Below are positions 11,871-25,053 of a stretch of DNA of 32,000 bases, in pieces. The stretch covers positions 30,001 through 62,000 of the forward strand of contig JAWCFL010000006.1 of the NCBI GenBank assembly GCA_038858525.1. Reading direction: 5' to 3'. Each line of letters starts with the position of its first letter. Position 1 is the first letter of the stretch. The translations under genes were made by a program, and so were the position numbers. The DNA comes from Candidatus Jordarchaeales archaeon (GTDB lineage Archaea > Asgardarchaeota > Jordiarchaeia > Jordiarchaeales > Freyrarchaeaceae). Under the pieces are notes generated by a model. It did no database searches. It was not told the origin of the DNA and saw only the letters and a list, made by a program, of their open reading frames with translations.

Positions 11871-12817
11871 TCAATCTGGCTGGTGCTCGGCGGGCTCTAT
11901 CGGTGTTTTCGTGGGTTTTTCACATCCCCTCTTGGTTACCAGAACAGGAATCTTGGTTACCAGAACAGGAATTTCCAGCCTTAATCCTCCCACTCCAGGC
12001 TTATTTATCTGGAGGTAAAGTTCTTCAACCATTCCTTCTCTAAACTCATAGCTCGTCCAAGGCTCAAAGATAGTTATCGGCGGATACCACTCATGTCCGA
12101 CTATTCCTATTCCGTGGCCGAAGACTGGTGGCGTATGTGGCGCATACTCCGTCTTATTGAGCTTCTCCATGATTTTTTTCGCGACCTCGCCGACAGTTAC
12201 CCCCGGCGCAACGTTGTCTATTAAAATATAGGAAAGCTCGACGAACGTTTCAATCATCTTCCTCTGTTCGTTGTCTGCCTTCTCCATGACGACGTTGTAT
12301 GCGAGGTCAGAATAGTAGAGTTCATATGTAGAGTGCAACTACCATTACTATTTCTCCTTCTCTGATAACCTTATTTGATGGAGGGGTGCAGCCGCACCTC
12401 GAATACCCACCCCTATAACCTGACGCTACCTCGTCCCCTCCCGTTATCGGCCAATTCCACATCGAGCCGAGTTCTCTCATCACCTTCTCTCCCGCTCCAA
12501 GGACGCTGCCTCGGTTACTCCTACTCTCAGAGCCCTCAAGGCAGCCTTTATCCCCTCATCAGCTATGCTGGCAGCTTTCCTCATCCTCTCTATTTCAGCT
12601 GGCTCCTTGATCACCACAGCCTCATTCATAACCTTTGAAGCGTTAACAAAGGTGGCGTCAGGAAGCTTCTCCTTCAGCATTGTGTACTCTGCTTGATTTA
12701 TCACGCCTTCAATGAGACGCGGCGTCACCTCCGCTTCTATACCTATAACTGCTTTTTCAAGTCCCAGTTCCTTAATTCTGCTAGCAACCTGTTCAGGCCA
12801 ATAATAACCGTTGTCGG
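11871..12817 (-). pseudogene. Second M24 peptidase, pseudogene: 5'-truncated by IS607, with two frameshifts
   Basis: Three frames join to ...SDNGYYWPEQVASRIKELGLEK...IKEPAEIERMRKAA...VGVTE[fs ~12505]VLGAGEKVMRELGS...EIVMV[fs ~12340]LHSTYELYYSDLA...GHGIG..GHE...; the N-terminus is not found beyond the IS. Confidence 0.8.
11931..11972. repeat. Perfect 21-bp tandem duplication (IPVLVTK x2) in the peptidase pseudogene
   Basis: CTTGGTTACCAGAACAGGAAT at 11931-11951 and 11952-11972. Confidence 0.95.
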
Positions 12818-12910
12818 ATAGTTAATTTTTTATAACTATCCGTTCCACCTCGGCTAAAGCCTCATGGGTGGCTTTCGCCGCCAACGGTAAAGGACGGCAC
12901 ATGGAGAGTT
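12816..12910 (-). ncRNA. Putative TnpB reRNA (omegaRNA) scaffold overlapping the tnpB 3' end
   Basis: ATGTGCCG..CCGTT..CGGCGAAAGCC..CCCATGA (12902-12862), shared with IS607 #2, followed by a 10-bp perfect inverted repeat (12815-12824 / 12833-12842). TnpB reRNAs are known to overlap the tnpB 3' end and the right end. Confidence 0.6.
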
Positions 12911-13997
12911 TTCCAGCTATGTTCCAAGCGGCGACCAAGTGTCTATCTGCTTGGAAGCCGCACCGCCTGCATTTGAAGACGTGCCCATTCGGCTTACTAA
13001 TTTCGCCACACATCGATGTCCTAGAGGTGTTTTCAGGCTTAACGGTTTCAGGCTTAAAGCCATGCTCCATCCCCTTATAGGAGATGTAGAACTGGATTCT
13101 TCTGAATGGTATGCTGTGGAGCCTCCTATTCATCACCCCACCATACCGAATCCTCTCCCTTATGTGGGTGAGCTCCTCCATTACAGGCTTAACGTTTTCC
13201 TCGGCAACCACACCAGCTACAATCTTCGCCGCCCTATGAAGTACGTCGTTCACCCTCCGCCTCTCCCTCCCAGAATACTTCGATAACAGCTCAGCTTTTG
13301 TCTCCCCCGAGGTCTTACCCTGAATGCTCCTCCTCTTCCTGAAGTACCTGCCTCTAATGTGTTTCGCCTCACTTATATCTATCTTGATGAACCTGACCTT
13401 ACCCGGCTTCACAACAGCCAAGTCTATACTACACTCGTTAACATCGATGCCCAGCACGCCTTCGGACTTTCTCTCCTCAACCGTCCTCCTAAAAGTAACA
13501 TGAAGATAGTATTCGTTATTAAATTTTACAAGCCTTGAGCCTTTAACCTGCCAACCCATGAACTTCATCGAATGCTCATGAACCCTGAACGGAATCGCGA
13601 TGTGTCCTTTGTGCGTAGCCAGCCTTACGCATCCCCAACTGAACCAGAACAGGTGGGCGTCGTCCAAAAGAATGGTGTTTAGTTTCTCAATTCTTGGAGG
13701 GTTAATTTCCCCCCTCTTCCTAGAGAGCCTCCTGTAGGACTTGAATATGCTTAGAGCTTGTGTTATAGCCGTATAAATGTAATGGGATGGGTGGTTCGGA
13801 TACTTCGTCCTCAGCTCCTTATAAATTGCTTCATGAAGCCTCCTACGTGAGGTCACATTTAGATTCATAGCCCTATCTAGGCATGCTTTAACCATTTCGG
13901 AATAGCTCTTGAAGAGATCCTCGAGAACGATTGCTTGTTCATCGTTGGGCTGGAGCTTAAACTTGCAGGTCTCATTCAGCAATAAGCTGCCTGACAC
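12822..13997 (-). CDS. tnpB: TnpB (IS607-associated RuvC-family RNA-guided nuclease), probably catalytically impaired
   Basis: GIDVN (RuvC-I), MEEL (RuvC-II), C-terminal CRRCG..ADRHLVAAWNI; open ORF of 391 aa. Confidence 0.9.
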   Translation of the reverse strand: MSGSLLLNETCKFKLQPNDEQAIVLEDLFKSYSEMVKACLDRAMNLNVTSRRRLHEAIYKELRTKYPNHPSHYIYTAITQALSIFKSYRRLSRKRGEINPPRIEKLNTILLDDAHLFWFSWGCVRLATHKGHIAIPFRVHEHSMKFMGWQVKGSRLVKFNNEYYLHVTFRRTVEERKSEGVLGIDVNECSIDLAVVKPGKVRFIKIDISEAKHIRGRYFRKRRSIQGKTSGETKAELLSKYSGRERRRVNDVLHRAAKIVAGVVAEENVKPVMEELTHIRERIRYGGVMNRRLHSIPFRRIQFYISYKGMEHGFKPETVKPENTSRTSMCGEISKPNGHVFKCRRCGFQADRHLVAAWNIAGKLSMCRPLPLAAKATHEALAEVERIVIKN

Positions 13998-18186: not shown

Positions 18187-18802
18187 GTGCCTGAGAAGCT
18201 CTACACTAATGGTGAGGTTGCGAGGACTTTCGGGGCTTCCTATGTCGCTGTTAAGAAGTGGGCTTATTCTGGTAAGGTTAGGCTTATTAAGACGCCTGGC
18301 GGGAAGTATAGGTTTCCCGAGAGCGAGGTAAAGCGGCTTCTTGGAGGGCGGACTCCGAAGGGAAGGGCTGTGATTTACGACAGAGTGGGTGCAGCTGACC
18401 AGTGGGAGGATTTGGAGAGACAGAAGCAAAGGCTCATTAGGTATGCCAAGAGTAGCGGCTACAGGATATAGTGGTTCTTGAGGACATAGCTTCCGGGTTA
18501 AACGAAGAATAGGAAGAGCTTGATGAGGCTTTTTGAAGTGGTTTCACAGAAACAAGTGGAGGTCGTCTTCATAACATAGGGATAGGCTTACAAGGTTCGG
18601 CTTCAAGTATTTAGAGGCATTCTTTAATTCTCATGGCTGTAGAATAGAGTGCTTAGATGCTGAAGAAGTTAAGGAGCCACAACAAGAGCTTATAGATCTA
18701 ATAGCCATAGTTACGAGCTTTGCTGGGAGAATCTATGGAGCGAGAAGCAATAAGAAGCGGAGGGTTGTGGAGGCTGTTGAGCAGACGATTAGAAACAATT
18801 AA
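18187..18802 (+). pseudogene. tnpA: IS607 TnpA pseudogene #2
   Basis: VKKWAYSGK...TPGGKYRFPESEV, AVIYDRVG (catalytic Ser lost), DLERQ, then shifted EDIASGLNE, RDRLTRFGFKYL and DLIAIVTSFAGRIYGARS; at least three frame breaks. Confidence 0.88.
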
Positions 18803-18975
18803 ACTAGCGGCGAGCTTCAAGCTGAATGGTTTTGTGCCAGACCGAGTTATTCCAAGCCTACAGGCAGATATTAAGCGAGCTCTTAGACTATGCCTGCGAT
18901 AGGGGAGTCTCAAGCTTTAAGCGCTTAAAGTCCGAGAAGTATTGTGACTTAAGGGCGAGGTACCCGAGCTTGCCT

Positions 18976-19221
18976 ATATCAGCAGTTTCGTGGTATATAG
19001 GTTTAAATAGAGGTTGATTACTTTGTTCTTAATGATGTCTACTCTAAAACCTGCCCAGTCTGTTCAGGAAGCATGGCTTCCTATCCGGGCAGGATATTAA
19101 ACCTTCAGATGCGGGGAGAAGGGTTCCCCCAAAGAGCCCTCAATGAGTTAATCGAGGGGGAAGGGTTAAGTAGGAATGAAGGTAACAATTCACTATGTAT
19201 TCCTACTTAACTCAGAACCCT
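18976..19221 (+). mobile_element. Non-autonomous mini-element #1 (promoter + tnpB-tail-derived structured RNA), inserted in tnpB #2
   Basis: Removing it rejoins the codons CCT(P) and TCA(S). CCT occurs at 18973-18975 and 19219-19221. It carries a relic frame YSKTCPVC...LNLQMRGEGFPQRALNE and several hairpins, and is related to 23881..24154. Confidence 0.8.
19002..19011 (+). promoter_or_regulatory. TATA box of mini-element #1
   Basis: TTTAAATAGA; the identical 10-mer sits at the equivalent position of mini-element #2. Confidence 0.6.
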
Positions 19222-20104
19222 TCACACTACATTTATACTGCATGCCCGATGGCATGCTTAATATACAAATCCTTCAGGAAGCTGAAAGGGAGGAATAAAG
19301 TTAGGTTAGGTCTGAAGCCGCTATTCAGGAAAGACGTTATAATGCTCGACGACCACCTATTCAGCATGAACCTCGATAAATGGGAAGCTCCCGTTGCAAC
19401 GGAAGCTGGGAGAATAGTGTTCAGAATCCTTCATGGAACATGTCATGAGAAGTTCAGGGGCATGAAGGTTGGGCAAGCATGGCTCGTCAGAAGGCGCGAT
19501 GGCCATTATTTGAAGGTTGTCTTCAGCAAGACCGTAGAGGTTGCTGAACCTAATGGGAAAAAATTGGCTATAGACGTAAATGAAGCAGCGTAGCCTACGG
19601 CACGGAGAACAAGATAGGCGTCCTTAAGACTGGCGAGAAAGCCATAAGGACGGCATACTTCCTGAAGATGCGTAGACTCCAATCCAAACTGAGGCTCAAC
19701 GAGAAGCCGATACTTGCGAAGTATAGGGGTAGAGAGACGAGGAGGGTGGAGGCAATCCACCATAAAATCGCAAACAGTCTCATCGAGGAGGCTAAGAGAC
19801 AGGGCTGCACAACAAAATAGTCCTCGAAGACCTCAAGCACATCAGAAGACGCATAAGAAAATCTAAAGCTCTTAACGGCAGATTGAATAGGTGGGGCTTT
19901 CAGAAAACTCCAGCACATCATAGAATACAAGGCTAGCTTAATAGATTAAGCGTATTTTATGTTAAAGCTGGGAGCACATCAAGTCTATGCCCAAAATGCA
20001 GGGGCAGGCTAAGCCCAAGCGGGTATAGGCTGATGAAGCGCCCAAGATGCGAACTGGAGGAGGACAGAGATATAGTAGCCGTGAAGAACCTCCTCCAGAG
20101 AATC

Positions 20105-20165
20105 CAGATAGATGTGCCGGCTTCACCCGTTCACGGCGAAAGCCCTCCCATGAAAGGAGGAAAGA
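20105..20165 (+). ncRNA. Putative reRNA scaffold of IS607 #2
   Basis: ATGTGCCGGCTTCACCCGTTCACGGCGAAAGCCCTCCCATGA (20112-20153) aligns with the motif at 12902-12862. Confidence 0.55.
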
Positions 20166-20353
20166 AGAAATGAAAGTTAACACTGGATCAGAACGGCAGG
20201 TGAGCAAGAGAAGAAGAATCTATCACCTCTTTGTCGCAGCGAAAACATGCAACTTAATTGGAACAGCGTTTTTAGACAGGAACATTTGCTCTCACGATAC
20301 ATCCTTTTTAGTTACATGTCAGCCACATCTGTCCCTAGGAACTCACTTTCCCT

Positions 20354-21412
20354 CTAATATATTTCTTCTTCACCTTTTTTTCCCTCCCCGGCCATTACCT
20401 TGACCTTCTCTTCCTTGACCTTCTCTTCCTTGACCTTCTCTTCCTTGACCTTCTCTTCCTTGACCTTCTCTTCCTTGACCTTCTCTTCCTTGACCTTCTC
20501 TTCCTTCCCGATTTTCTTTCTCAGCTTCTCATCCAGTATTTTTAGTACCTCTATGGCATACAGGCTTCTGCCGCAGTAAGGGCACTCGATGACGTTGCCG
20601 CTTTCAGGAAGCTTTAGTTTTCCTCCACAATGCGGGCATGCAATCTCCTCAATTATTAATCCTCTGGTTTTTAGCAGCAAGCGTATATGTTCGTAGCTCT
20701 CTTTTTCCTCAAAAAACACGCCGATTTCTGAAGCAAGCTGATCAAGACGCTCATCGAAATCTTTCCTGAGTAACTCCACTTTCTCACCCTGAGCTTTCAC
20801 TATGTTCGGCCACTCCGCTTTAAGCTTCCTGTATTTATATTCAACATTGTCTAAATTCGAACGCAGTTCGTCATTAAGCTTATCTACGGCCTTTTTTATC
20901 TCTCTTCCTTCCTTCTTCAACATTTTTATTTCCTTACGAGCTGTGGGACTTATCAGTGGAGACAACACATAAAGAATGTGGGCACCGTATAACGCTAACC
21001 CAAATAACAGACCAGGCAATCCATAGCTATAAATAAGTATAACAGTAACAAGGAAAATTGAGGTATGCAAGCAGCACACAAAGAGCTTTCTAAACCTATC
21101 CTTTGCTTGATTCACGTACATCATTAACGCGTCTTCTAACTCGTGAAGCTTATAAGTTAAAGCCTCTATTTCCGGCGTATACTTATTTCGTAATTCGTCG
21201 CATTCTTTTACTTTCGCGTAATCTAAGCCTCGCACCATTAACTCATACTTTCTGCTTTCATCATTAAGGACACGTAAATCCTCGGCCAGCTTCCTTAACT
21301 TGCCTCTTAGCTCAGGCGCAAGCTCCGTGTACTCGAAACCGTACCCCAACTTCGACTCAAGCATCTTTTTTATTTTTCTCTCGTTCTCCCTAACCCGCTC
21401 ATCATAATACAC
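20354..21412 (-). CDS. Hypothetical membrane protein: coiled coil, TM hairpin, zinc ribbon, (KEEKV)7 tail
   Basis: Heptad-rich N-terminal half; hydrophobic LFVCCLHTSIFLVTVILIYSYGLPGLLFGLALYGAHILYVL; CPHCGG...CPYCG. Confidence 0.8.
   Translation of the reverse strand: MYYDERVRENERKIKKMLESKLGYGFEYTELAPELRGKLRKLAEDLRVLNDESRKYELMVRGLDYAKVKECDELRNKYTPEIEALTYKLHELEDALMMYVNQAKDRFRKLFVCCLHTSIFLVTVILIYSYGLPGLLFGLALYGAHILYVLSPLISPTARKEIKMLKKEGREIKKAVDKLNDELRSNLDNVEYKYRKLKAEWPNIVKAQGEKVELLRKDFDERLDQLASEIGVFFEEKESYEHIRLLLKTRGLIIEEIACPHCGGKLKLPESGNVIECPYCGRSLYAIEVLKILDEKLRKKIGKEEKVKEEKVKEEKVKEEKVKEEKVKEEKVKEEKVKVMAGEGKKGEEEIY
20398..20506. repeat. 15-bp perfect tandem repeat, 7 copies plus 4 nt
   Basis: CCTTGACCTTCTCTT x7, encoding KEEKV on the - strand. 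Confidence 0.97.
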
Positions 21413-21931
21413 GCTCGATATTCGTCTCCCCCCATTTCAGTTAGCCAACTATTGTAAATTCCCTACCATCCTTCATAAACTTTTATGTTTTCATTTTTAA
21501 AAAGATTTTCTTTAATGTTTACCAGTGATATCGCATACATCATCACCTTTAATAGCCTCCTTCTTACCCCGACGCCTCTAAGCGTCAATAGCTTCCATAA
21601 CAACAATCACCGTTTTCTCTGTGTAGCTCACATAGAAGCTAAAAGGGGACACGTTTTCATACAAGAGACATTTTCACCGTCTCAGCTACCTCGTGAACAC
21701 CACAACATACATGTGCAGACTAAAAGGGAAAGTAACGTTCAAGTAGGATGAAGCCCAGGGAACACGTAACTGCTACTAACACGGAAGGAGAACCTTTAAT
21801 GTACCCGCCTAGAATCTTTTTAATAACCAAAAGGATGCCGCCAATTACCGTAGCGAACGGTAATTAAGAGAAATATTAAAAAGCAGAAAAAAATTAAAAT
21901 AGTAACTGATAAAAGGATTTCTCTCTATTTT

Positions 21932-23515
21932 GTGGAGGAGAACATGAAGAGAGCGGCATGGAGAACTTACATGGCAGTGTTGCTAGTAGGAGTGCTGGCG
22001 CTCACATTGGTAGCAATGCAAATATCAACGCCAGCACAAGCACAAACACAACGAACGATACAAAAGGCTCAAATGACATGGGCAAAAACGTATGGAGGAA
22101 CGTATGGCGACTCCGCTTTTCGTGTGGCTGTTGATGGTCAGGGGAACATCATAGTGGTAGGCGAAACATGGTCCTTTGGTGCTGGTGGTAGTGACGTTTG
22201 GGTCTTGAAGCTTGACCCTAACGGGGACCCAACATGGCAGAAGGCGTATGGAGGAACGTATGGCGACTCCGCTTTTCGTGTGGCTGTTGATGGTCAGGGG
22301 AACATCATAGTGGTAGGCGAAACATGGTCCTTTGGTGCTGGTGGTAGTGACGTTTGGGTCTTGAAGCTGAACGCCTCAGGTAACGTCATCTGGCAGAAAG
22401 GATACGGAGGAGAGAGCAAAGATTACGCTTGGGGTGTTGCTGTTGATTCTCAGGGAAATATAATAGTAGCGGGAGGAACTGAATCCTTTGGTGCTGGTGG
22501 TAGTGACGTTTGGGTCTTGAAGCTGGACCCTAACGGGGAACCAACATGGCAGAAGACATATGGGGGAGCGAGCAACGAGTGTGCTCTTGATGTTGCCTTT
22601 GATGTTCAAGGAAACATTATAGTGTCAGGGTACACTTACTCCTTTGGTGCTGGTGGCAGTGACGTTTGGGTCTTGAAGCTGGACCCTAACGGGGAACCAA
22701 CATGGCAGAAGACGTATGGAGGAATAAACGACGACTATGCTTCTGGCGTTACTGTTGATGCTCAGGGGAGCATAATAGTAGCGGGAGGCACAAACTCCTC
22801 TAGAGCTGGGGGATGGAACGTTTGGGTTTTGAAGCTTAACAGCTCAGGAGACACCATATGGCAGAAAACGTATGGGGAAGCGAAGACTGACGTTGCCTAT
22901 GATGTTACTGTCAACGCCCAAGGAAACATTATAGTGTCAGGGTACACTTACTCCTTTGGTGCTGGTGGCAGTGACGTTTGGGTCTTGAAGCTGGACCCTA
23001 ACGGGGAACCAACATGGCAGAAGACGTACGGAGGAACTTATGAGGACTGTGCTATGGGAGTTGCCGCCGATAATGAAGGTATAATTGTGGCTGGGTTTAC
23101 GTCATCCTTTGGTGCTGGGCTTCGAGACCTCTGGGTTTTGCGTATAAGTTCGAATGGTGAAATTTACAATTCAATATCCGAATTCACCATAAAAAATACT
23201 AGCGTGGCGCCTACAACAACAGCGGCTTCCCCCTCACCTACTAACGCTGCAATTTTATCGACGAACGCGAACTTGAGCGATACGCAAGCAATAATAACAA
23301 ATACCAACGCGGCAATAAACACGCAGGCACCGCCTTCCCCATCCTTTTCACCACCTATTGAGGAGCAGTTTTTGCTTCTGCTTCTAGTCCTCGGGTTGTA
23401 TGACTCGGTGGAGAATGCATCTCGAAGTAGTGTGGTTTCCATTGGCTTTTTCATAATTCTTTTTGGCGACATCAGTTTGTACGTTTTTCTTTATCGAAGG
23501 TGGAGACTTGCGTGA
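21932..23515 (+). CDS. Cell-surface protein with seven 52-aa repeats (predicted 7-bladed beta-propeller) and a C-terminal membrane anchor
   Basis: Signal peptide; WQKTYGG...GNIIV.G.T.SFGAGGSDVWVLKLDPNG repeats; Thr/Asn/Ala-rich linker; hydrophobic tail ending YRRWRLA. Start may be ATG 21944. Confidence 0.88.
   Translation: MEENMKRAAWRTYMAVLLVGVLALTLVAMQISTPAQAQTQRTIQKAQMTWAKTYGGTYGDSAFRVAVDGQGNIIVVGETWSFGAGGSDVWVLKLDPNGDPTWQKAYGGTYGDSAFRVAVDGQGNIIVVGETWSFGAGGSDVWVLKLNASGNVIWQKGYGGESKDYAWGVAVDSQGNIIVAGGTESFGAGGSDVWVLKLDPNGEPTWQKTYGGASNECALDVAFDVQGNIIVSGYTYSFGAGGSDVWVLKLDPNGEPTWQKTYGGINDDYASGVTVDAQGSIIVAGGTNSSRAGGWNVWVLKLNSSGDTIWQKTYGEAKTDVAYDVTVNAQGNIIVSGYTYSFGAGGSDVWVLKLDPNGEPTWQKTYGGTYEDCAMGVAADNEGIIVAGFTSSFGAGLRDLWVLRISSNGEIYNSISEFTIKNTSVAPTTTAASPSPTNAAILSTNANLSDTQAIITNTNAAINTQAPPSPSFSPPIEEQFLLLLLVLGLYDSVENASRSSVVSIGFFIILFGDISLYVFLYRRWRLA
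22079..23165 (+). repeat. 156-bp intragenic repeat x7
   Basis: Trp codons at 22079, 22235, 22391, 22547, 22703, 22859 and 23015, an exact 156-bp spacing. Confidence 0.95.
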
Positions 23516-23880
23516 AGCTCCTGACGGAAGCCCCGTCCTCTCCTGGCGCAGTTACTATTATAAGTAGCAACGTGCGAAAATGCATTTGCAATAGTAATTA
23601 ATCTATTCATTTTTAATCTAAGCTTCAATCTGAGTAGTAATTAATTAAATCATAGAGCTCTTAACGGTAAATTGGCATGGTTACTCGGTGGTTTGATGGA
23701 GTTTTCCGCTATTAAAGATGAAGGTCTTGAACGTCTTGTGCGATTAAAAGCTAAATAGTTGCTCGGCAGTTTCCAGATATATAACTTATTGAGGTTGAAG
23801 CCGCCTAAAATTTGCCTAATATGTGGCGAGACAAATGAGCTGAATGGGCGCGTCTTAAGTGTATGTGAGACTTAAGCGGT

Positions 23881-24154
23881 AGGATTCTGAACTGCGTAGT
23901 CTTTGGTAGACTTGTGTAGCTCTTGGTTTTCATCGAGCCCGTTCTGGGCTCACATCGCTCTCTAACCCTGTCGAGTCGAACCCGCCCCATACATCCACGC
24001 CAAGCCCTTTCGAGCCTGAGGTCATCTGTATGGGGAAAGTCCCCCCATCTGAAGGTGGCATCATCCGTAGGAAGCCATGCTTCCAGAGCAGAGCCCGGCT
24101 CCGGAAAGGTTAATGAGCAAGTCTATTTAAATCTATCTTGAAACTGTTTTTTGA
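23881..24154 (-). mobile_element. Non-autonomous mini-element #2 (ORF-less structured RNA cassette related to mini-element #1)
   Basis: On the - strand: CCT | TCAAAAAA CAGTTTC .. TTTAAATAGA .. GGAAGCATGGCTTCCTA (24084-24068) .. ACCTTCAGATG (24056-24046) .. TCAGAATCCT. The flanking CCT copies are AGG on + at 24155-24157 and 23881-23883. Confidence 0.75.
24122..24131 (-). promoter_or_regulatory. TATA box of mini-element #2
   Basis: TTTAAATAGA on the - strand, directly upstream of the structured region. Confidence 0.6.
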
Positions 24155-24308
24155 AGGCGCTTCGCCGCCGTTTTTGGCATTGTAAATTTCCGGCGTGCCG
24201 CCCTTATCGTTGGCGGTGAAAACCCCTCGGGAGCTTTAATCGTGGAAGATGAGAAAGGTAGAATCTGTTGACCCCACGAAGGTGGAATCATCGTTGAGGA
24301 GATAGTGA

Positions 24309-24827
24309 TTAATCTTTTATTTCGTCGTTTGTTGTTTCCCAGAGCCACTCTAGAGGGTTTTCCGTTTCTACAAATTTGAATTGTTTAAAGTCCTTTATGT
24401 TTTCTGTCCATATGAATTCCACTTTTCCTCTTGCTGTGCAAGCTAGTAGTGCGTCGAAGAAGTCTCCGCCTCTTAGTCCGATTCTTTCAGCCTCAAGCAC
24501 CGCTTCCCTGTAATCTTCGATTGTCGGCTGCAGTTTCCGTATTGCAGTTGACTTAAGGTAGGCTGTGCATATTTCGGCTGCGCGGCTTGGGCTTAGAGGG
24601 TTCTGAACCTTCCTGCTCGTGATGACCGAGTAGAGCTCGGCTATGTTTTGGAGGCTGACGTATGCCTCCAGGAATCCTAGGACTGCAGCCTTGATTATCA
24701 CTGCCGCGCCTCTGTTACTGGGACTTAACTCGTCACTGGCATAGCAAAGGATCATTGTGTCGAGTAAAACGCGTTTCCCGTAGTGCTCGGTTTCAGTTAT
24801 ATCCACTCCGTTAACGAGTATCCTCAT
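24309..24827 (-). CDS. vapC: PIN-domain (VapC-like) toxin
   Basis: LLDTMIL, QNIAELY, DFFDALL and WTENIKDF acidic PIN residues; overlaps the upstream antitoxin gene. Confidence 0.85.
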   Translation of the reverse strand: MRILVNGVDITETEHYGKRVLLDTMILCYASDELSPSNRGAAVIIKAAVLGFLEAYVSLQNIAELYSVITSRKVQNPLSPSRAAEICTAYLKSTAIRKLQPTIEDYREAVLEAERIGLRGGDFFDALLACTARGKVEFIWTENIKDFKQFKFVETENPLEWLWETTNDEIKD

Positions 24828-25053
24828 ATATTTCCCTTCTGCTGAGGTGTGGGACGCCGATTTTCGCGGGCTTTTCTAGGATTTCGAGGAGCTTCTCGTC
24901 CGCGGTTTTCCTCTTGAGTTTCGCCTCGAAGCTCCTACTGCTTGTCAGCCTGATTTCGAGCTTGTCTCCGTCTTCAAGTCCAAGGGCCTCCCTCACCTCT
25001 ACGGGAATGTAAAGCTTGCCCTTATGGTATGTTCCGACTCCCAAGCTGGACAC
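24811..25053 (-). CDS. AbrB/SpoVT-type antitoxin
   Basis: GKLYIPVEVREALGLEDGDKLEI AbrB-fold signature, directly upstream of the PIN gene. Confidence 0.85.
   Translation of the reverse strand: MSSLGVGTYHKGKLYIPVEVREALGLEDGDKLEIRLTSSRSFEAKLKRKTADEKLLEILEKPAKIGVPHLSRREIYEDTR

Follow-up and report, generated by a model that had tools for sequence, protein, structure and literature searches.

Two short segments of the window, the whole 32,000-nucleotide stretch of DNA that was analyzed, carry the same motifs in the same order, as an initial annotation had described: CCT, CAGTTTC 7 to 8 nt inside the end, TTTAAATAGA, the 17-mer GGAAGCATGGCTTCCTA, ACCTTCAGATG, and the terminal TCAGAAYCC. The 17-mer occurs at exactly two sites in the window, once in each segment and on opposite strands, where 100 shuffles gave an expectation of 0. 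The segments, here called copy 1 and copy 2 (Table 1), are real, but their exact ends had to be moved from those first proposed, and empty-site reconstruction now delimits copy 2 at 274 bp, which includes the CC core of its right end, and copy 1 at 246 bp. A GGGTTA that had been listed as shared lies at nonhomologous positions, forming an arm of the terminal hairpin in copy 1 and falling in an internal stem region in copy 2, and only the CC of the CCT end is a unit repeated at the junctions, the T being coincidental. Both copies are precise insertions, each within the decayed tnpB of another insertion sequence.

Table 1. Positions of the two mini-elements, their parts and the relics that host them (LE, left end; RE, right end; MFE, minimum free energy).
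Feature	Position in window	Strand	Basis or remark
Mini-element copy 1	18975..19220	+	246 bp
Copy 1 LE CAGTTTC	18983-18989	+	sequence
Copy 1 TATA	19002-19009	+	sequence
Copy 1 P1 17-mer	19067-19083	+	exact match
Copy 1 tail	19100-19220	+	A1 tail model
Candidate guide flank of copy 1, TTCACACTACATTTATACTG	19221..19240	+	by position
Decayed IS607-like host element of copy 1	18193..20200	+	TnpA relic 18193-18612; tnpB relic 18780-18974 and 19221 to about 20200
Mini-element copy 2	23882..24155	-	LE, zinc-finger hairpin relic, A2-like omegaRNA tail and RE
Right-end CC core of copy 2	23882-23883	-	included in the 274 bp
Left-junction CC core of copy 2, preceded by G (target NGCC)	24156..24157	-	GCC directly 5′ of LE in 16/16 tabulated elements
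LE signature CAGTTTC, copy 2	24146-24140	-	read from the sequence; layout as in full-length LEs
Archaeal TATA box TTTAAATA, copy 2	24131-24124	-	layout as in full-length LEs
17-mer with P1 hairpin GGAAGC-ATG-GCTTCC, copy 2	24068..24084	-	P1 covaries in 42 full-length relatives
ACCTTCAGATG, near-invariant single-stranded motif, copy 2	24046..24056	-	LNLQM codons in parents; alignment of relatives
Stem CCCCATAC/GTATGGGG around GGCTCGAAAGGGCTT, copy 2	23985..24035	-	MFE fold
Terminal hairpin and RE terminus GAAT, copy 2	23884..23922	-	mutated (invariant form GAAC); comparison with A2 consensus
Candidate guide flank of copy 2, TACCGCTTAAGTCTCACATA	23862..23881	-	assigned by position only
Decayed family-B tnpB 3′ relic hosting copy 2 antisense	23789..24283 (23789-23881 and 24156-24283)	+	flank alignment

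In the case of copy 2, excising the element in silico leaves flanks that align continuously to intact 3′ ends of family-B tnpB genes with a score of 106, compared with 23 +/- 3.8 for shuffles, and because the flanks are contiguous with family-B tnpB across the junction, copy 2 lies in antisense orientation within an old tnpB relic. At the protein level this host relic is barely detectable (blastx E 0.3). Synteny with the genomes G002 and G003 did not yield an empty site, as the alignment covers only the PIN and Lhr genes and breaks off before reaching the element, and the empty site was instead rebuilt from the host tnpB relic. The two open reading frames (ORFs) that overlap copy 2, of 61 and 72 amino acids, have no Pfam match above the cut-off, its relic tnpB frame contains stops, as had been noted, four in all, and a tRNA search found none. 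A PIN-domain gene (24309-25053, minus strand) encodes 172 amino acids with Pfam matches that are weak, at or below the cut-off; it overlaps an 80-amino acid upstream ORF, and the arrangement resembles a toxin-antitoxin pair between the insertion sequence relic and the Lhr helicase gene.

When copy 1 is excised, the host tnpB frame (..RYPSLP/SHYIYTA..) is restored across the junction. In the same part of the window, a run of ~15-nt tandem repeats (CCTTGACCTTCTCTT-like) lies at about 20400-20540, within a 352-amino acid ORF (20354-21412, minus strand) that has weak zinc-ribbon matches. The reconstructed empty sites of the two copies read TTG-CC-TTCACAC and GCG-CC-TACCGC, with CC at both junctions and no target duplication beyond this shared crossover dinucleotide in either copy. 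In all 16 elements compared, GCC flanks the left end, and the right end reads GAAC followed by CC. The presence of CC at both junctions is the pattern that would be expected of a serine recombinase crossing over at a 2-nt core, and NGCC is a candidate for both the target and the TAM.

Parents were sought in the window's own genome, which comprises 2.09 Mb in 63 contigs. One parent of 1.38 kb (C24:26774-25395), whose sub-lineage is called A1 here, consists of a left end, a 65-amino acid ORF with a helix-turn-helix (HTH) domain, a tnpB with two frameshifts, and a right end, and further A1 copies are broken at contig ends, with left ends on C14 and C25 and right ends on C17 and C53. The A1 HTH ORF matches HTH_17/MerR and is 35% identical to the N-terminal HTH of the IS607 TnpA of a G002 element, but it has no catalytic domain, and the HTH-only protein could be a regulator or a remnant. 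The A1 TnpB matches OrfB_IS605 and Cas12f1-like_TNB; the 17-mer corresponds to the CSGSMASY codons of its zinc finger and ACCTTCAGATG to its LNLQM codons. The parent TnpB ends in ..LNLQMRG, as had been foreseen, and this supports the proposal that the two segments derive by deletion from a third local tnpB lineage and encode no protein. A1 elements of 1.34 to 1.37 kb are found in MAGs labelled Brockarchaeota, Bathyarchaeia, Nitrososphaeria, Jordarchaeia, Baldrarchaeota, and Archaeoglobi. The A1 architecture of left end, 65-amino acid MerR/HTH_17 ORF, and TnpB (L018:1552-1746 and loci L070-L109) is found across at least six archaeal lineages represented by hot-spring MAGs.

A true IS607, at L175/L049 of the sister genome G002, represents a second sub-lineage, A2; it has a TnpA with HTH and resolvase core (frameshifted) followed by a 411-amino acid TnpB. 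The left end of this element (AAAATAGATTAAATAG) and its long tail resemble copy 2. In the window's assembly, no A2-type TnpB was found beyond a 38-amino acid relic on C42, and no intact A-type TnpA was seen, the check for intactness and subtype covering the closest of the resolvase hits, a truncated piece on C58, though in an assembly that is 92.7% complete and broken at insertion sequence copies these absences do not prove that a cognate TnpB or TnpA is missing. In G001, a genome of the window's GTDB genus, locus L062 (C170, about 677-760) has a right end (..CATAACCC), about 19 nt, and then GCC and the left end of another element, a tandem arrangement of right end, spacer, and left end in which the spacer would be both guide and target flank. 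Loci of G001 are 100% identical to contigs of 'Candidatus Jordarchaeia archaeon QC4', which places the window in an Asgard archaeon.

Copy 1 consists of the A1 left end through the leaderless start codon joined to the final ~230 nt of the element, from which another ~50 nt has been lost internally. Its left end is 93% identical to the full-length left end on C14 and its tail 94% identical to that on C24, both in the same genome, and copy 1 represents an independent and younger case, belonging to the sister sub-lineage that pairs an HTH ORF with TnpB. The leaderless ATG of the parent HTH ORF is kept and is fused to a 22-codon frame (MMSTLKPAQSVQEAWLPIRAGY; 19033-19101) that is probably meaningless. 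Copy 2 combines an A2-like left end, an A1-type zinc-finger hairpin, and an A2-like tail: its left end AAGATAGATTTAAATAG resembles that of the G002 IS607, and over its final 51 nt it shares 84-85% identity with A2 tails, a weaker match to relatives than that of copy 1. Among 300 Asgard genomes no close parent of copy 2 was found, with only the terminal hairpin (the last ~50 nt) and the left end matched.

The region that both copies keep from the 3′ part of the parent was analyzed in an alignment of 42 full-length 3′ ends, for which pair counts were computed in Python with slid stems as controls. Conservation runs from the zinc-finger codons to GAACC, overlapping the 3′ end of tnpB and reaching the right end, which is the layout that would be expected of a TnpB omegaRNA. 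Two nested stems, P0 and P1, lie inside the zinc-finger codons; P0 is 95% canonical with compensatory changes in six of its eight pairs, and P1, in the 17-mer, is likewise 95% canonical with compensatory changes in four of six pairs, compared with 30-61% canonical in the slid controls. The terminal hairpin also covaries, with an 8-16-bp stem that takes many different sequences and ends right before (A)GAACC. The motifs ACCTTCAGATG and GAACC are invariant or nearly so, including at synonymous sites, and GAACC is found in 42/42 elements. The consensus tail is predicted to fold as a three-way junction with a closing helix between GGGTTC and the right-end GAACCC, both sides of which are near-invariant, so that covariation gives no support for this helix. 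In full-length elements a TATA box precedes the leaderless start codon (ATG) of the first ORF by 30 nt, so in the minis this promoter would place the start of transcription a short way ahead of the scaffold. Both copies retain the parent's TATA promoter and structured 3′ region, in agreement with the initial annotation.

The scaffold has no match in Rfam, either in the window at the gathering score or at E<=10 within 18900-24400. It also differs, as had been stated, from the tails of the window's family-B IS607 elements, which end in ..CGACAACGG. Genome-wide, family-B tails (for example window 12808-12912, minus strand) score 29-46 bits on R1, a covariance model of the A1 tail, and have the closing helix ACCGTT/AACGG in the same three-way-junction architecture, with a terminal core of GG rather than CC.

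The two copies differ on this model. Copy 1 scores 130.4 bits compared with 114-132 for full-length copies, and all of its stems are intact, whereas copy 2 scores 17.9 bits in an alignment that stops short of the right end, for comparison with 32.6 bits for an A2 element and 29.1 bits for the C42 relic. The GAACC found in 42/42 relatives is GAATC in copy 2, whose terminal 8-bp stem shows two mismatches and one G-U relative to the A2 consensus GAGCTACG/CGTAGCTC; the P0 stem is absent from copy 2, and a loop in which A2 relatives retain GATGAACYCG is shorter there. The stems that had been described for copy 2 (CCCCATAC/GTATGGGG, GAGCCC/GGGCTC, and AGTCT/AGACT) are all present in its MFE fold, and both segments fold more stably than shuffles, with z scores of -3.65 for copy 2 and -3.10 for copy 1. 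At the position of CCCCATAC/GTATGGGG, A2 relatives read by eye carry CTCCAAGC/GCTTGGAG or CTCCATCTC/GAGGTGGAG, and stems kept through different sequences show descent from an unsampled sub-lineage as much as any constraint. Copy 2 is probably an inert relic that looks old and partly decayed, and for copy 1 the use of its RNA as a guide in trans at present is plausible.

Whether such elements move in their reduced form is best seen in G002, where minis of about 300 bp that lack ORFs and share one junction between left end and tnpB occur at three different loci (L043:1445-1744, minus strand; L187:1455-1753, plus strand; L188:48-344, minus strand), two of them being near-identical. Because one deletion junction recurs at three loci, minis of this lineage transpose as minis. 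In the two near-identical, recent minis the 5′ arm of P1 is missing and GGCCCC replaces GGGTTC (60-67 bits), and since they spread with a damaged P1 and closing helix, an intact scaffold is not needed for spread, which argues against strong selection on the RNA. The window's genome has a single copy of each of its two minis, and these differ in their deletion junctions. Of the multicopy family envisaged by the initial annotation, there are two loci in the window's own genome and a related mini-family at three loci in G002; copy 2 itself is a singleton in its own genome and in 300 Asgard genomes.

Other one-off deletion derivatives with different breakpoints are found at L113, L117, and L122, and one-off derivatives occur in Brockarchaeota, Bathyarchaeia, and another Asgard genome; that the tail is retained in all derivatives is partly an ascertainment bias, because the tail was the search query. 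In another family of the same order, L176:625-895 (G008:C163) is an A2-type mini of about 270-290 bp, in which a left end with a TATA-like box runs straight into the element's final ~210 nt. A further orphan tail may lie at L169 (G031:C1:1179227-1179338), where an A2-like tail has a mutated end (CAGGGCCC) and no tnpB could be detected in the 1.6 kb upstream. Loci L161 and L167 resembled ORF-less tails, but L167 proved to have an upstream TnpB with a long 3′ noncoding tail. In metagenomes, the mini signature TTTAAAT-N35-65-GGAAGCATGGCTTCC had four matches, all of them unrelated and due to chance.

A guide acquired from the flank, as proposed for copy 2, can be assigned by position, although its predicted start lies one base earlier than had been written. 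The 20-nt flanks of both copies have no other match in the genome within three mismatches. The nearest other match of the copy 2 flank has four mismatches, and those of the copy 1 flank also have four, with three falling at a single recurring paralog-like site (AACCACCC and ATCCCATTACATTTATACGG). A role of the guides in targeting paralogous insertion sequence copies was considered and rejected, given the lack of matches at three mismatches or fewer and the ACCC, not GCC, that precedes the recurring site. With the flanks unmatched elsewhere, the only predictable target of either guide is the empty site of the element itself, which fits the published model of TnpB homing and retention and not a repertoire. 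The dispersed guide repertoire for one nuclease that had been suggested is not supported, since the genome has only two copies and these belong to different sub-lineages, the assembly shows no cognate A2-type TnpB, and copy 2, which carries mutations at family-invariant positions, has no close parent among 300 Asgard genomes.

Taken together, these observations make it highly probable that copy 2 is a nonautonomous, internally deleted derivative of the IS607 lineage that carries an omegaRNA-like region, including a proposed past as a guide in trans. Copy 2 retains about 60 nt of the left end with its own TATA promoter, a piece of zinc-finger coding sequence that contains the conserved hairpin, the last ~190 nt of tnpB, and the right end, and in both minis a TATA-bearing left end is joined to the last 190-240 nt of tnpB and the right end. 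In full-length relatives this 3′ region corresponds to a covarying, omegaRNA-like structure that is predicted to be closed by a helix including the right-end terminus. Either its entry or its reduction would have taken place at a CC crossover site with a G before it (NGCC), in the older tnpB relic. Transcription from the left-end promoter would then give an RNA of scaffold plus flank-derived guide, TnpB made by full-length siblings could take up this RNA in trans and then cleave the unoccupied site (GCC plus flank), and repair from another genome copy still bearing the element would restore it. The parts of this reading that have direct support are the homology to parents, the exact insertion boundaries, the loss of coding capacity, and the conservation of structure in the parents. 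For copy 2, any guide function would belong to past history, because it looks like a decaying relic.

One important consideration is how much of this history took place after insertion. The minis could have arisen by decay in place, full-length insertions having lost their interiors, so that neither mini moved as a mini and the RNA region is baggage, and we regard this as a substantial possibility, if somewhat short of an even chance. The unique junction of each mini and the lack of a second copy of either in the genome point in this direction, as do the one-off derivatives with other breakpoints at L113, L117, and L122 and the left end of copy 1, which is closest to the full-length left ends of the same genome (87-93%). 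The G002 minis of this lineage do transpose as minis, however, and copy 1 shares with them both the P0 variant CCAGTCTG..CCGGGCAGGAT and the left breakpoint region. As to a common mini ancestor for copy 1 and the G002 minis, their left ends are only 69% identical, and the left end of copy 1 is closer to the full-length copy of its own genome. That the segments are instead an independent host noncoding RNA gene or regulatory element unrelated to transposons is effectively refuted: the fold is stable and no Rfam match names the segment, but every conserved block maps to the left end, tnpB coding sequence, or right end of insertion sequences, and the segment interrupts the tnpB relic precisely.

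At the other extreme, the minis would be maintained and active stand-alone guide cassettes, each with its own promoter, supplying one TnpB in trans with a dispersed set of guides. This is unlikely. Copy 1 does keep its promoter and a complete scaffold (130 bits), the family-invariant motifs are kept in both copies, an independent second deletion in two minis removes the unstructured stretch between P1 and ACCTTCAGATG, and stand-alone omegaRNAs that act in trans have a published precedent (PMC10691335). Standing against it are the count of two copies from different sub-lineages, the defects of copy 2 at invariant positions together with the missing cognate TnpB, the spread of G002 minis with damaged scaffolds, the bias toward tails in the search, and guides that match only their own occupied sites, which points to selfish retention. 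A more elaborate version, to which we give very little weight, is that guide-only minis are hyperparasites that would borrow the TnpB and TnpA of their kin, settle preferentially in the tnpB genes of rival insertion sequences, and be driven toward a minimal RNA of promoter, P1 hairpin, and three-way-junction tail. A preference for tnpB targets was rejected on the flanks of three other minis, which have no tnpB, and because these three lie outside tnpB, the nested positions of copies 1 and 2 are better read as safe-haven survival in neutral DNA. If the hyperparasite reading were true, the minis would reveal, as a natural experiment, the smallest omegaRNA that still functions with an archaeal IS607 TnpB.

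The preferred reading, a deletion derivative with a proposed guide function in trans, places the minis beside several known systems. According to PMC10691335, which cites Altae-Tran 2021, mobilized, stand-alone omegaRNAs without effector and transposase function in trans, and Meers et al. (bioRxiv 10.1101/2023.03.14.532601) describe PATE-like elements of Geobacillus that encode omegaRNAs and require TnpB in trans; the earlier statement that no described family could be recognized is superseded by these accounts. The minis resemble these elements in being protein-less, in having transposon ends, in keeping the scaffold, in taking the guide from the flank, and in having TnpB and transposase encoded elsewhere. 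They differ in that the stand-alone omegaRNAs and PATE-like elements are bacterial, mostly of IS200/IS605 type, and use a Y1 transposase that acts on single strands at the TAM, whereas the minis have IS607-lineage parents (with a serine recombinase or an HTH remnant), a CC core, an Asgard host, an archaeal TATA promoter in the retained left end, a low copy number, and a use in trans that is so far a proposal. Identity with a PATE, an element of IS200/IS605 moved by a Y1 (HUH) transposase that recognizes subterminal hairpins, was rejected on the serine recombinase or HTH remnant of the parents and on junctions with a dinucleotide core, so that a mini may work like an omegaRNA-bearing PATE and yet not be one.

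An archaeal relative in form also exists. ISC1733 is an IS607-family element (ISfinder). Its transposase mobilizes SMN1, a 320-bp nonautonomous element of Sulfolobus islandicus (PMC3718332), and an archaeal, IS607-type nonautonomous element was thus already known, a further point on which the initial annotation had found no described counterpart. SMN1 is like the minis in being archaeal, ORF-less, about 300 bp long, and dependent on the transposase of an insertion sequence encoded elsewhere, but it has no sequence relation to them, and its mobilization has been experimentally observed. The IS607 TnpBs are proven RNA-guided nucleases with a TAM that adjoins the left end (PMC11061315). As in the TnpB/reRNA systems of ISFba1 and its relatives (PMC11061315) and in RAGATH-18-derived RNAs, the scaffold here reaches as far as the right end, from a start that overlaps the 3′ end of tnpB or comes after it. 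In the ISFba1 systems too the TAM adjoins the left end, with AGGAG/GAGGG compared with the candidate NGCC here, and unlike those systems the minis have no nuclease gene, and their scaffold lacks an Rfam match even at E<=10.

These elements reveal no new principle, as stand-alone guide elements are already known, but they add to the known class of guide-RNA-only mini-transposons an example from the IS607 lineage of an Asgard archaeon (Jordarchaeia). Covariation among 42 elements of several archaeal phyla also defines an omegaRNA-like scaffold that is absent from Rfam and that comprises the P0/P1 hairpin in the zinc-finger codons, the invariant ACCTTCAGATG, and a three-way junction predicted to be closed by the right-end terminus. 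Together with this scaffold, the candidate TAM and target NGCC and the crossover core CC could aid the annotation of such elements and the choice of thermophilic TnpB/omegaRNA pairs.
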